From the NCBI RefSeq assembly GCF_988243305.1, contig NZ_OZ547136.1: 64,000 bases of DNA. One strand, 5' to 3'. The notes beneath the pieces are model-generated. The model was given only the letters and a program-made list of their open reading frames with translations, was not told the origin of the DNA and made no database searches. Made by a program: the position numbers and the translations under genes. Shown piece after piece: positions 37,100 to 42,225 of the stretch (the stretch's first letter is position 1; each line of letters starts with the position of its first letter).

Positions 37100-37175
37100 G
37101 GCCCTTTAGCTCAGTGGTGAGAGCGAGCGACTCATAATCGCCAGGTCGCTGGTTCAAATCCAGCAAGGGCCATCA
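37100..37175 (+). tRNA. tRNA with CAU anticodon (Ile2/Met type, ileZ-like)
   Basis: cloverleaf: acceptor GGCCCTT/AAGGGCC, D-arm GCTCAGTGGTGAGAGC, anticodon loop CTCATAA, T-arm GGTTCAAATCC. Confidence 0.8.
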
Positions 37176-37275: not shown

Positions 37276-37352
37276 GCGTTGTTAGCTCAGCCGGACAGAG
37301 CAATTGCCTTCTAAGCAATCGGTCACTGGTTCGAATCCAGTACAGCGCGCCA
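37276..37352 (+). tRNA. tRNA-Arg (UCU anticodon)
   Basis: acceptor GCGTTGT/ACAGCGC, anticodon stem ATTGC/GCAAT with loop CTTCTAA, T-arm GGTTCGAATCC, 3' CCA encoded. Confidence 0.85.
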
Positions 37353-37816: not shown

Positions 37817-38263
37817 ATACATATCTGGATTATCACCGGTTACGGTAAAAAGTGATTGCTTACTGTTTTTGTGAATGGCATTGCAGCAGCCGGATAATGT
37901 CAGTGCTGGCTGACGGTGTGCTGGTGGCGGGTGTGGTGGTTGCTGCTTTCCCGTTGCTGAAAAAGAAAACGCCAGACTGTTAGCCGGGTATCAGTTAGCG
38001 GGAGAAATTTTTAAATACTTCACAATTCAGGCGGTTGACTGTTGTCTGGTTTGCGGGGAGTTTGTTAAAAGAAACTGGCATGGTGAATCCCCCTGTGCGG
38101 AGGGGCAATCAGCGAGTAGGTATATGGGATAATCGCGGATTCAGGTGCTGGTACTGAATTCACCGGGAGGCACCCGGCACCATGCAATGGCACATAGCGC
38201 CACTCTCCAGCCCCTCTCCGGAGGGGCTGTTTATATTGATTTTGTCAGATGTGAGTAAACTCC

Positions 38264-38599
38264 TTATGGACTTTGTTGTTTTAGCCCATAAGGACATATT
38301 TGCAGAGTGCAACGGTTATTAAAGCATTCATTCAATACGTTATCTGTATTTGTAGGGCATTCCTGGCTGTTTTTGATTAAATTCCAGAATGTTTTATTGA
38401 ATGGTACTACGTTGTAAATGGTTACAGGCAGCACTTTGTTATTGAGCATGATGCCTGTGTGAGTCAGTGTAAATATACTTTCAGGAGGTAAGAAAGCATC
38501 CGATTGATACCAGATTATTAATTTTATTTTACTCCATATGACTGAAAAAGATATTCCGCATGATGGCTGGATAACTGTATCAATCACAATCCACTTCAT
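38264..38599 (-). CDS. hypothetical 111-aa protein, reverse-oriented cargo gene
   Basis: ATG at 38599 with AAGGAAA RBS at good spacing; hydrophobic N-terminal region, Cys-rich C-terminus. Confidence 0.45.
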
Positions 38600-38844: not shown

Positions 38845-40713
38845 ATGGTGGAAAGAACCATGGCATTTAAACACTATGATGTTGTCAGGGCGGCGTCGCC
38901 GTCAGATCTTGCGGAAAAGCTGACACATAAACTGAAAGAGGGCTGGCAGCCGTTTGGTAGTCCGGTGGCCATAACCCCTTATACCCTGATGCAGGCGATT
39001 GCAGCAGAAGGTGATGTGGTCGTCAGTGGTGCAACTGAGCCGGAGTGGTACTACGTCATCGTACTGGCCGGGCAATCCAATGCCATGGCTTACGGTGAAG
39101 GGCTTCCGCTTCCGGATTCATACGATGCGCCCCATCCGCGCATTAAGCAACTGGCCCGTCGTAACACAGTGACTCCCGGTGGTGAAGTATGCGTATTTAA
39201 CGACATCATTCCTGCTGACCATTGTCTGCATGATGTTCAGGATATGAGTACGATTAACCATCCCCGGGCTGACCTGAGCAAAGGGCAGTACGGCTGTGTC
39301 GGACAGGGCTTACATATTGCCAAAAAACTGCTTCCGTATATCCCTAATAATGCGGGGATCCTGCTGGTACCATGCTGTCGTGGTGGTTCGGCATTCACCC
39401 AGGGCACGGAGGGGACATTCAGCGAGTCCACGGGGGCCAGTCAGGATTCGGCTCGCTGGGGAGTGGGTAAGCCGTTATATCAGGATCTGCTTTTCCGCAC
39501 GAAGGCAGCATTGCAGAAAAACCCGAAAAACGTTTTGCTGGCGATATGCTGGATGCAGGGGGAATTCGATATGACGAATGCCAGTTACGCCCAGCAGCCA
39601 GCAGCATTTCTTGCAATGGTACAGCAGTTCCGTGCTGATCTTGCCGGGCTGGCGGCGCAGTGTCACGGTGGAAGTCCGGCATCAGTCCCCTGGATTTGTG
39701 GCGACACGACATACGCGTGGAAACAAGAACACGGTACGCAATATGAAGTGGTATATGGTGCATATAAAGGTAAAGAATCCCAGCAGATTTATTTTGTTCC
39801 CTTTATGACCGATGGTAGCGGAGTTAATACACCGACAAACAACCCGTCAGAAGATCCTGATATTGCCGGGTCTGGTTATTACGGTTCGGCATCCCGAACG
39901 AACAAAAACTGGGTATCATCAAATCGCCCGACGCATTTCAGCTCATGGGCGCGTCGTGGCATTATTCCCGATCGTATGGCAACTGCTATTCTGAACGTAG
40001 CCGGTCGCACCTTAGCCTTCATTAGTGGTAAGGCACCGGAAATCAAACCCTCGCCCGGCGGCGACACGCCATCGGGGCCGTCTGAAGATGCATCCGTACG
40101 CACAATCTCCCTGTTGCCGACAGCCGGAGATGCTGCTGCGCAGGGCTGGAGCATTAAGAATGGCGGAATTCAGTTGTCAGATGGTGTATTTAAGATCACC
40201 AAGCAGAGCAATAAAGCCTGGTCCCTGACGCGCCCGGTGGATGACGCAGTCTCCCTGCTGACACGGGGTGGCAGACTGAGCTGTAAGTTTCGACTGTCAG
40301 GCGCACTGACCAACAACCAGTTCGGTCTGGGAATTTATCTGTATACCGATGTAGCGTTACCTGACGTCGTGGCGATGACCGGGACTGGTAACCCGTTCCT
40401 GATGTCGTTCTTCACCCAGACCACAGACGGCAAACTGAATCTGATGCATCACAAGAAAGCCGGAAACACAAAGTTGGGCGAGTTCGGGAATTACAGTAAC
40501 GACTGGCAGACGCTGGAGCTGGTGTTCACCGCCGGCAGTGCCACGGTTACTCCGAAACTGAATGGAGTGGCTGGCCCGGCATTCCAGGTCATAAAAGACA
40601 GTCTGACACTGGGGCTGAATGCGCTGACGCTGACGGATATTACCAAAAATGCAGCGTATGGCGTTGAGATAGAAAGTCTGGTGCTGGAGATAAATGCACC
40701 GGCATCATCATAA
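38845..40713 (+). CDS. NanS-p-like sialate O-acetylesterase (DUF1737 plus SGNH/SASA domain)
   Basis: N-terminal MAFKHYDVVRAASPSDLAEKL... and GQSNAMAYG esterase motif; start may be ATG 38860. Confidence 0.8.
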   Translation: MVERTMAFKHYDVVRAASPSDLAEKLTHKLKEGWQPFGSPVAITPYTLMQAIAAEGDVVVSGATEPEWYYVIVLAGQSNAMAYGEGLPLPDSYDAPHPRIKQLARRNTVTPGGEVCVFNDIIPADHCLHDVQDMSTINHPRADLSKGQYGCVGQGLHIAKKLLPYIPNNAGILLVPCCRGGSAFTQGTEGTFSESTGASQDSARWGVGKPLYQDLLFRTKAALQKNPKNVLLAICWMQGEFDMTNASYAQQPAAFLAMVQQFRADLAGLAAQCHGGSPASVPWICGDTTYAWKQEHGTQYEVVYGAYKGKESQQIYFVPFMTDGSGVNTPTNNPSEDPDIAGSGYYGSASRTNKNWVSSNRPTHFSSWARRGIIPDRMATAILNVAGRTLAFISGKAPEIKPSPGGDTPSGPSEDASVRTISLLPTAGDAAAQGWSIKNGGIQLSDGVFKITKQSNKAWSLTRPVDDAVSLLTRGGRLSCKFRLSGALTNNQFGLGIYLYTDVALPDVVAMTGTGNPFLMSFFTQTTDGKLNLMHHKKAGNTKLGEFGNYSNDWQTLELVFTAGSATVTPKLNGVAGPAFQVIKDSLTLGLNALTLTDITKNAAYGVEIESLVLEINAPASS

Positions 40714-40788: not shown

Positions 40789-40818
40789 AGTTATCAGAGC
40801 CATCAGTACTTAACTGGT
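40789..40818 (+). terminator. rho-independent terminator between nanS-like gene and lysis genes
   Basis: GCCATCAG-TACTTAA-CTGGTGGC hairpin (one G-U pair) followed by T7. Confidence 0.55.
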
Positions 40819-40863
40819 GGCTTTTTTTATTGTTGTCAGCTTCCGGATAACGGGAGACGGGGT

Positions 40864-41079
40864 ATGTACCAGATGGAAAAAATCACAACAGGTGTGTCAT
40901 ACACCACGTCAGCGGTGGGAACGGGCTACTGGTTCCTGCAGTTGCTGGACAGGGTTTCCCCGTCTCAGTGGGCGGCAATAGGCGTGCTGGGGAGTCTGCT
41001 GTTTGGGCTGCTGACATATCTGACTAACCTGTATTTCAAAATCAGAGAGGACCGTCGTAAGGCGGCACGGGGAGAGTAA
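40864..41079 (+). CDS. S21-type pinholin with dual start
   Basis: 71 aa [71 protein letters not shown]; two TM segments; Met1/Met4 dual start. Confidence 0.85.
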
Positions 41080-41083
41080 TTCA

Positions 41084-41434
41084 ATGACTCAAAACTATGA
41101 ACTGATTGTGAAAGGGATCCGCAATTTTGAGAATAAAGTTACGGTAACTTTAGCGTTACGGGACAAAAAACGCTTTGACGGTGAAATTTTTGACCTGGAC
41201 ATCTCGCTGGACCGTGTTGAAGGTGCCACGCTGGAGTTTTATGAGGCAGCAGCCAGAAGGAGCATCAGACAGGTCTTCCTGGATGTTGCTGCCGGGTTAT
41301 GTGAAGGGGATGAGCAGTCGCCGGAAAAGCGCCCCGTAATTTTAGAGGCGCAGAATGTATGGATAACCTACAAAGGAAAGCTACCGGGAATAATTACTGG
41401 TTCTCTGAAGACTCCTCCGGAATCACAACCTTAA
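41084..41434 (+). CDS. hypothetical 116-aa protein inside the lysis cassette
   Basis: ORF with GGAGAG RBS between pinholin and endolysin; no TM segment seen. Confidence 0.5.
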   Translation: MTQNYELIVKGIRNFENKVTVTLALRDKKRFDGEIFDLDISLDRVEGATLEFYEAAARRSIRQVFLDVAAGLCEGDEQSPEKRPVILEAQNVWITYKGKLPGIITGSLKTPPESQP

Positions 41435-41497
41435 GTCACTGACCGGAACAGATAAACCTGTCCGTGGGCAGAAACCGATAAATCCTGATAAATATCC

Positions 41498-42031
41498 ATG
41501 AACACCAAAATCAAATACGGCCTGTCGGCTGCCGTTCTGGCGCTGATTGCCGCTGGTGCGCCTGCGCCTGACATTCTCGACCAGTTTCTGGATGAAAAGG
41601 AAGGTAACCACACCACGGCATACCGTGATGGCGCGGGTATCTGGACCATCTGCCGCGGTGCCATCCTGGTGGATGGCAAACCTGTCGTTCCGGGCATGAA
41701 GTTGTCGAAGGAAAAATGCGACCGGGTTAACGCCATTGAGCGTGATAAGGCGCTGGCATGGGTGGAGAAAAACATCAGAGTGCCATTGAGTGAACCCCAG
41801 AAAGCGGGGATCGCGTCATTCTGTCCGTACAACATTGGCCCCGGTAAGTGTTTTCCGTCGACGTTTTATAAACGAATTAATGCAGGTGATCGCAGGGGAG
41901 CGTGTGAGGCGATTCGCTGGTGGATTAAGGACGGTGGCAGAGACTGCCGTATTCGCTCAAATAACTGTTACGGTCAGGTATCCCGTCGTGACCAGGAGAG
42001 CGCGCTGGCGTGCTGGGGAATCGACAGATAA
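41498..42031 (+). CDS. SAR endolysin (phage lysozyme)
   Basis: 177-aa ORF; N-terminal Gly/Ala-rich signal-anchor segment LSAAVLALIAAGAPAP, then catalytic E...D...T region. Confidence 0.88.
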   Translation: MNTKIKYGLSAAVLALIAAGAPAPDILDQFLDEKEGNHTTAYRDGAGIWTICRGAILVDGKPVVPGMKLSKEKCDRVNAIERDKALAWVEKNIRVPLSEPQKAGIASFCPYNIGPGKCFPSTFYKRINAGDRRGACEAIRWWIKDGGRDCRIRSNNCYGQVSRRDQESALACWGIDR

Positions 42032-42124
42032 GCAGAATATTTTGCTAATAAATGACGTTGGCCAAGGCGGACGGGTAACACGAAATCCTGCGAACTGGCA
42101 AAATGTAAGTGAATAAAAGTAAAA

Positions 42125-42160
42125 ACCCCGTTTGTTGGCAGCAAGCGGGGTTTTGTTTTT
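42125..42160 (+). terminator. hairpin plus T-run terminator after the endolysin gene
   Basis: CCCCG-(loop)-CGGGG followed by TTTTGTTTTT. Confidence 0.5.
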
Positions 42161-42225
42161 ATGGCAGTAAGCTATGGGAGGCTGCCTTGATTGATTTTAG
42201 CAAACTGATTAGGGAGTTGCGACTC

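Follow-up and report, generated by a model that had tools for sequence, protein, structure and literature searches.

Which gene stands between the pinholin gene S and the endolysin gene R of this prophage, and does its product take part in lysis? An earlier note on the 64,000-nucleotide stretch of DNA analysed here (the window) had described a well-formed 116-codon open reading frame in this slot, which is empty in model cassettes with adjacent S and R, and had proposed that its product could act on the endolysin or on lysis timing.

Organization of the lysis region

The open reading frame, hereafter ydfR, is present exactly as first described: it starts with ATG, comprises 116 codons, and occupies positions 41084..41434 of the (+) strand. 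Its location between an S21-type pinholin gene and a SAR endolysin gene was borne out by Pfam matches of both neighbours (Table 1), and so was its ribosome-binding site, the Shine-Dalgarno-like GGGGAGAG, which lies within the 3' end of S. The TAA codon of the pinholin gene (41077-41079) is followed after 4 nt by the ydfR ATG, while 63 nt separate ydfR from the SAR-type lysozyme gene. The G+C content of ydfR is 46.7%, compared with 53-55% in S, R, and Rz.

The pinholin sequence begins with MYQMEK, with a dual start at Met1 and Met4 (the MYQM motif), and ends in a basic tail; the dual start supplies both antiholin and holin from one gene. The endolysin has a weakly hydrophobic, Ala/Gly-rich N-terminus (YGLSAAVLALIAAGAPAP) and, as read from the sequence, the E-x8-D-x5-T catalytic spacing. 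Rz and Rz1 complete the lysis cassette.

The terminator that the earlier note had placed ahead of the pinholin gene, at 40789..40818, is real, its stem being found within a few bases of that position, at 40796-40824. It folds with -17.1 kcal/mol (z = -3.3), a value reached by one of 200 shuffled sequences. Upstream of it, at 38845-40713, lies a gene for a NanS-p-type sialate O-acetylesterase (DUF1737, SASA, and DUF6645 domains), as in Stx phages, and the terminator stands between nanS-p and the lysis genes. A promoter scan of the (+) strand upstream of ydfR (40.7-41.1 kb) detected no sigma-70-like promoter. An Rfam scan of the whole window gave no match between 40.7 and 42.7 kb, which leaves no known RNA to account for this segment, and RNA structure in the spacer between ydfR and R is not significant (z = -0.4).

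Table 1. Features of the lysis region; positions are those of the window
Feature	Position	Strand	Evidence and remarks
Intrinsic terminator upstream of the pinholin gene	40796..40834	+	12-bp stem 40796-40824, then U7 run
S21-type (class II) pinholin gene S, 71 codons	40864..41079	+	PF04971, E 9e-33; PHROG holin families
Shine-Dalgarno-like GGGGAGAG	41069..41076	+	serves the gene after S: ydfR here, R in ydfR-less cassettes
ydfR codons 1-72, conserved DUF1327 core	41084..41299	+	family alignment, AlphaFold, dN/dS
ydfR codons 73-116 and stop, variable C-terminal module PEKRPVILEAQNVWITYKGKLPGIITGSLKTPP	41300..41434	+	pLDDT, alternative C-termini
Endolysin gene leader without Shine-Dalgarno sequence, CCTGATAAATATCCATG	41484..41500	+	alignment of R upstream regions; unique in the window
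SAR-type phage lysozyme, endolysin gene R, 177 aa	41498..42031	+	PF00959, E 1e-23; PHROG 7 endolysin
Strong terminator hairpin just 3' of R	42122..42154	+	-21.4 kcal/mol, z = -4.1
Rz (i-spanin)	42674..43141	+	PF03245, E 1e-49; first ATG taken, as annotated in the 97%-identical locus L001
Rz1 (o-spanin), embedded in Rz	42894..43079	+	PF06085, E 4e-22

Family membership and prevalence

The product of ydfR matches the Pfam family DUF1327 (PF07041) over model positions 1-92 of 93 with an E-value of 6e-43 and 145.4 bits, the cut-off (Pfam gathering threshold) being 25 bits, and PHROG 406 with an E-value of 4e-68. Both are labelled as families of unknown function. All core features of the family are present, i.e., Y5 and E6 of the Y-E-L start, R44, E46, and G47 of the D/E-R-x-E-G loop, and Y53 and E54 (Y-E) at the start of the helix. 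In Pfam, all 28 diverse aligned members match DUF1327 alone at E up to 1. No NCBIfam model covers the product, a profile search of PDB sequences gave no match below E 0.35, and PADLOC-DB (E up to 0.1) gave none for the product, its long variants, or the convergent partner genes described below. Fragments matching only the C-terminal module proved to be deletion or assembly derivatives, which rules out this module as an independent gene.

Identical DNA is found in several complete E. coli chromosomes, and a 100% identical gene is named in RefSeq as coding for a "YdfR family protein" (WP_000193290.1). By megablast, matching DNA is present in 4,313 of 5,426 complete E. coli genomes (about 80%), in up to nine copies per genome, and the part coding for the N-terminal domain alone (N-domain) in 3,640 genomes. 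Among phages, the YdfR gene is carried by 101 records, including H-19B, BP-4795, phage 86, mEp460, and most Stx1a and Stx2c phages. The family is small: at 90% identity, a set of 5.8 billion proteins contains 331 clusters of it, and at 50% identity a set of 1.84 billion contains 89 representatives. The ORF is an already catalogued, named, and very common YdfR/DUF1327 gene, and as an entity it is not new. The label "unassigned" given to it in the earlier note has to be dropped, the gene being a DUF1327/YdfR member found in most E. coli genomes, K-12 included. That note had also suggested profile and structure searches; the former led to DUF1327 and PHROG 406, but the structural matches were uninformative. 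Nor does membership in DUF1327, for which no such function is established, relate the product to a lysis accessory protein with a known function, the finding that the note had set against its own proposal.

ydfR as an optional gene of the S-R slot

The holin of the window occurs in 436 phage records, of which about 23% carry ydfR and about 77% do not. Carriage differs between Stx subtypes, with ydfR in 41 of 47 Stx1a, 15 of 17 Stx2c, and only 2 of 124 Stx2a phages. As the majority of phages that have this holin and endolysin do without it, ydfR is dispensable for lysis as such; it is an optional, "moron"-like accessory in the late operon of lambdoid prophages of E. coli.

That ydfR is an additional gene in the S-R slot, as the earlier note held, is evident from the ydfR-less Stx2a phage VT2phi_272, in which R takes exactly the starting position that ydfR has in the window, 4 nt beyond the stop codon of S, and uses the same GGGGAGAG site. 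In an alignment of the two cassettes the indel corresponds to 41080-41524, from just past the S stop codon to about nine codons into R. The same GGGGAGAG and the same 4-nt stop-to-ATG gap are found in the window, K-12 Qin, mEp460, Evi, PhiR12_2_star, Stx1_499, BP-4795, Stx2k, and VT2phi_272, while in ydfR-positive cassettes R is preceded by the conserved leader CCTGATAAATATCCATG, devoid of a Shine-Dalgarno sequence. The first nine or so codons of R (MNTKIKYGL, 41498-41524) lie within the indel; in ydfR-less cassettes R begins with MSRKLRYGL directly after S. As judged from these alignments, the mode of R initiation and the short cytoplasmic N-terminus of R co-vary with the presence of ydfR. 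The C-terminal tail of the S21 holin is essentially unchanged between cassettes with and without the gene.

In every E. coli locus examined ydfR is strictly adjacent to S, and at least 2,259 genomes carry S and the ydfR N-domain as one contiguous stretch. In phiSTEC1575-Stx2k the S21 holin-ydfR pair is kept, while two holins and an M15 peptidase take the place of the endolysin. Within E. coli, ydfR travels with S.

The junction between R and Rz (42032-42673) contains, apart from the terminator hairpin, about 0.5 kb of low-G+C (45%) DNA with small hydrophobic ORFs at 42109-42321, 42324-42455, 42419-42574, and 42586-42672 (PHROGs 6632, 4906, 3246, and 4493, all of unknown function). Since both the S-R and the R-Rz junctions are interrupted by inserted DNA, both behave as insertion hot spots.

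Structure and evolution of the protein

The ydfR product has a mass of 13 kDa and a pI of 5.2. Its highest 19-residue Kyte-Doolittle mean is 0.69, with no transmembrane (TM) segment and no signal sequence; the product is a small acidic cytoplasmic protein. The earlier note had made the same point, that without a TM segment the protein is not an antiholin of the usual type, and here the antiholin already comes from the dual-start S gene. The protein was also rejected as a holin or antiholin for want of a TM domain and of any match to a holin family, and as a Mu-type releasin for want of a TM segment and of a DUF2730 match even with the E threshold raised to 1. It probably does not serve as a holin, antiholin, releasin, or spanin.

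An AlphaFold model based on a diverse alignment of 28 sequences gives pLDDT of 77-92 over residues 1-70, the N-domain being predicted to fold as three antiparallel strands (5-14, 18-27, and 34-43) followed by one long helix (50-73), i.e., beta-beta-beta-alpha. Residues 76-116 have pLDDT below 50 in AlphaFold, and the C-terminal tail is probably disordered. In structure comparisons with the model from 28 sequences (N-domain pLDDT 80-92) all Z-scores were below 5, and the matches were taken to reflect topology only; Foldseek against BFVD gave no match at E up to 0.001. Membership in the double-stranded RNA-binding domain family (dsRBD, alpha-beta-beta-beta-alpha), which requires significant structural similarity, was considered and rejected.

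Y53-E54 at the helix start are invariant across the 28 diverse members, down to 23% identity, and the core motifs are kept in other genera at 23-36% identity. With dN/dS between alleles of 0.2-0.45, the N-domain is under purifying selection. Beyond the core of about 72 residues, alternative C-termini give proteins of 72 aa (phage Evi), 103 aa (K-12), 104 aa (mEp460), and 114-116 aa (the window form); PhiR12_2_star and Stx1_499 also carry alternative C-termini, and longer members of the family have 169-183 aa, with a coiled-coil-like module, or 263-287 aa. Between the window allele and those of BP-4795 and Stx2k, dS is 0.8-1.7 in the N-domain and 0.15-0.21 in the tail, and because of this difference ydfR is regarded as a mosaic gene. 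Two deep N-domain lineages can be distinguished, MTQNYEL...RFDGEIFDLD and MKKKYEL...GGYPSLLLPDV (the window versus L021 and L022), with a recently shared tail. The Stx2k allele has its N-terminal half from one N-domain lineage and the rest from the other.

Distant relatives and their surroundings

Relatives of 72-86 residues from other enterobacteria stand outside lysis cassettes. They are located between tail genes M and L (L004, L007, and L009), after the tape-measure gene in Citrobacter portucalensis (L023), between Q and a different holin gene (L005), upstream of other holin types (L012), or between Rz and terminase (L014-L016). A search of genome contigs with a narrower alignment yielded one locus, from Citrobacter. 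Such positions argue against a lysis-specific role, and across the family the DUF1327 domain is a general accessory of the late operon.

In L003, L004, L005, L009, L012, L014, L018, L019, and L023 a small gene of the opposite strand (70-100 aa) is also found, usually 9-28 nt after the DUF1327 gene and overlapping it in L019. A small convergent gene likewise follows in the E. coli phages Evi and PhiR12_2_star; in the window no such partner follows ydfR. The partners were rejected as a single family, as they belong to several PHROGs (phrog_25324, phrog_2572, phrog_10490, and others), with no BLASTP similarity between the groups.

Other features of the prophage

Phage tRNA genes with the anticodons CAT and TCT are located at 37100-37172 and 37276-37352, downstream of Q and a DNA methyltransferase gene, which is the position of stx in Stx phages; the annotation of the near-identical locus L001 holds no toxin genes at this site. 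Between the tRNA genes and the nanS-p esterase gene lie a full-length match to the sRNA family STnc100 (38049-38238, (+) strand; Rfam, 132 bits) and, adjoining it, a minus-strand ORF at 38264-38599 (-), named anti-adapter protein IraM in a 97%-identical annotated locus. Rfam matches elsewhere in the prophage are the sok antitoxin RNA at 32396-32571 (+) with 117 bits and the DicF sRNA at 24586-24637 (-) with 77 bits.

YdfR of E. coli K-12 and RNase E

The cryptic prophage Qin of E. coli K-12 carries ydfR (b1555), the gene on which the family was founded, in the same order and orientation as the window, essQ-ydfR-rrrQ-rzpQ/rzoQ, with the same 4-nt gap after the holin stop codon. The two proteins are 80.6% identical over residues 1-72, with mostly conservative differences, and 66% overall, the C-terminal 31 residues of K-12 YdfR being unrelated to residues 73-116 of the window protein. 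The ydfR stop codon overlaps the rrrQ start codon (ATGA) in K-12, where the window has the 63-nt spacer instead.

The literature searched contains almost nothing on DUF1327/YdfR apart from the work of Göpel et al. (RNA Biol 2026; PMC13232886), whose two-hybrid screen yielded a fragment coding for residues 1-72 of YdfR three times. This part, the counterpart of the core encoded by codons 1-72 in the window, suffices for the two-hybrid signal with RNase E. With the full-length K-12 protein a signal was seen only for Rne1-597. Strep-tagged K-12 YdfR, when expressed and purified, co-purified chromosomally encoded Rne1-598-FLAG, and its eluate contained unusually large amounts of DNase-resistant nucleic acid, from which the authors suggested that YdfR may bind RNA. 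Overexpression of K-12 YdfR was not toxic, left growth unaffected, and changed few transcripts, and ydfR is silent in normal growth (PMC13232886). In that paper the genes flanking ydfR are given no known function; they are the holin, endolysin, and spanin genes of Qin. A ydfR deletion from the Keio collection also appears in a CPRG screen for envelope integrity, in the supplementary lists only (PMC3879167). The resistance cassette lies there directly upstream of the SAR endolysin gene, and because its polar effect on the endolysin could explain the phenotype, this match was given no weight.

Possible role of YdfR

The reading that agrees best with these data, to which a probability of about 40% is assigned, is that YdfR is a late cytoplasmic accessory protein that adjusts RNA turnover, its N-domain binding to RNase E (in the catalytic half), to RNA, or to both. 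As the layout suggests, ydfR would have no promoter of its own and would be transcribed only by Q-modified RNA polymerase that passes the terminator at 40796-40824, which in turn may insulate the lysis genes from Q-independent nanS-p transcription. Translation, probably coupled to that of S, would use the strong ribosome-binding site that S carries in its 3' end, so that YdfR would be made alongside the pinholin late in induction. By homology to the K-12 protein, the N-domain would then contact host RNase E in its N-terminal catalytic half, or RNA, or both of them, and YdfR may tune RNA turnover in the late phase, e.g., how long the extended late transcript or host RNAs persist. Nevertheless, the RNase E data come from one study and a different allele, that of K-12; co-purification was from lysate without nuclease treatment, and RNA could bridge YdfR and Rne; the signal of the full-length protein was limited to Rne1-597; and overexpression altered few transcripts with no effect on growth. 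The constant position directly after S in E. coli, retained even when the endolysin is replaced by the M15 peptidase module, would fit a role related to the pinholin equally well.

Such a role in lysis timing is considered rather unlikely. The acidic protein, made in a fixed ratio with the pinholin, would bind the basic, cytoplasmic C-terminal tail of S21 or the short N-terminus of the endolysin (MNTKIK), likewise basic and cytoplasmic, and delay or sharpen the triggering of the pinholin or the release of the endolysin. It would account for the strict adjacency to S, with the 4-nt gap and shared Shine-Dalgarno sequence in every E. coli locus examined, for the contiguity of S with the N-domain, and for the survival of the S-ydfR pair in phiSTEC1575-Stx2k. 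Moreover, the indel includes the first codons and the leader of R, so R initiation and the R N-terminus change with ydfR, and phage Mu offers a precedent for SAR endolysin regulators that face the cytoplasm, the need for its releasin gp25 being set by lysines in the cytoplasmic N-terminus of the endolysin (PMC9239132). However, YdfR differs from antiholins and the releasin in having neither a TM segment nor a tether to the membrane, about three quarters of the phage records with this holin do without it, and the S21 tail is essentially the same in both cases. Relatives in other genera, encoded in tail or packaging regions beside unrelated lysis systems, and the lack of a growth effect upon overexpression of K-12 YdfR also speak against it. 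Of the action on the endolysin or on lysis timing proposed in the earlier note no indication was found, and the optional presence of ydfR in phages with this holin, the sites of its relatives, and the RNase E and RNA data lean away from it.

It is comparably doubtful that ydfR is a gene of phage conflict, serving counter-defence, superinfection exclusion, or competition between phages, with the N-domain as an adaptor, the C-terminal modules or convergent genes conferring specificity, and the site after S being just a permissive insertion hot spot. Its polymorphic presence and lower G+C content, the many alternative C-termini (from 72 up to 287 aa), and the mosaic structure with unequal dS in the two halves are in line with this proposal, as are the several classic moron positions occupied in other genera, usually with a small convergent gene close behind, and the small ORFs inserted at the R-Rz junction of the same cassette. 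On the other hand, no PADLOC defence model was matched, and the convergent partners come from several dissimilar families and may be independent insertions. Exclusion by a protein expressed in the lysogen is unlikely, given that the scan detected no promoter for the gene and that ydfR of K-12 is silent in normal growth; counter-defence during lytic growth is possible.

Least probable by far is a mainly cis-acting spacer, an insertion that takes the strong S-coupled site used by R in ydfR-less cassettes away from it and leaves the weak leader CCTGATAAATATCCATG, which would lower the endolysin:pinholin ratio with a protein of little function, as this protein is under purifying selection, its core motifs are kept at low identity in other genera, its N-domain is predicted to fold confidently, and in K-12 the ATGA overlap restores the coupling.

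The RNase E and RNA reading can be extended in a way that links the RNase E lead to the position in the lysis cassette, if it is true, which is on the whole improbable. In this extension YdfR proteins would be phage modulators that bind RNase E or RNA, are co-translated with the pinholin, and, by tuning how fast the late transcript decays, adjust the holin:endolysin balance and the timing of lysis. More broadly, the gene for the DUF1327 N-domain, to which a small convergent gene is often joined, would form a mobile cassette of the late operon directed at one common host target across enterobacterial siphophages.

The gene is one of the most widespread E. coli prophage genes, found in about four fifths of the complete genomes and in Stx1a and Stx2c phages, inside the best-studied type of lysis cassette. 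The presence of lysis genes beside ydfR was not noted in PMC13232886, and joining the two facts makes the RNase E lead directly testable. If YdfR altered the time of lysis in Stx phages, or the stability of their late transcript, this would matter for toxin release.

Comparison with known systems

The S21-71 antiholin of phage 21 times the pinholin in the same type of cassette, yet it is the longer product of S (here from the MYQM start at 40864) and not a separate soluble protein. Closer to the idea of the earlier note is gp25 of phage Mu, the releasin (DUF2730), an additional protein of the lysis region that acts on a SAR endolysin: it is needed for the release of the endolysin and has a cytoplasmic domain and an N-terminal TM tether (PMC9239132), whereas the ydfR product has no TM segment and matches DUF1327 only. 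Among phage proteins directed at the RNA degradosome, the inhibitor Dip (gp37) of phiKZ binds the RNA-binding segments of the C-terminal scaffold of RNase E, not its N-terminal half (PMC4980113), and its structural match to the ydfR product is at noise level. Srd of phage T4, as far as it is described in PMC13232886 after Qi et al. (2015), binds RNase E in its N-terminal half and promotes the decay of host mRNA; RapZ is counted with Srd and K-12 YdfR among the proteins that bind this half. Srd is an early gene of a virulent phage, in contrast to ydfR, a late-operon gene of temperate phages whose overexpression barely changes the transcriptome. Still, Srd offers a functional analogy: both would be small, phage-encoded, cytoplasmic proteins that contact the catalytic half of RNase E.
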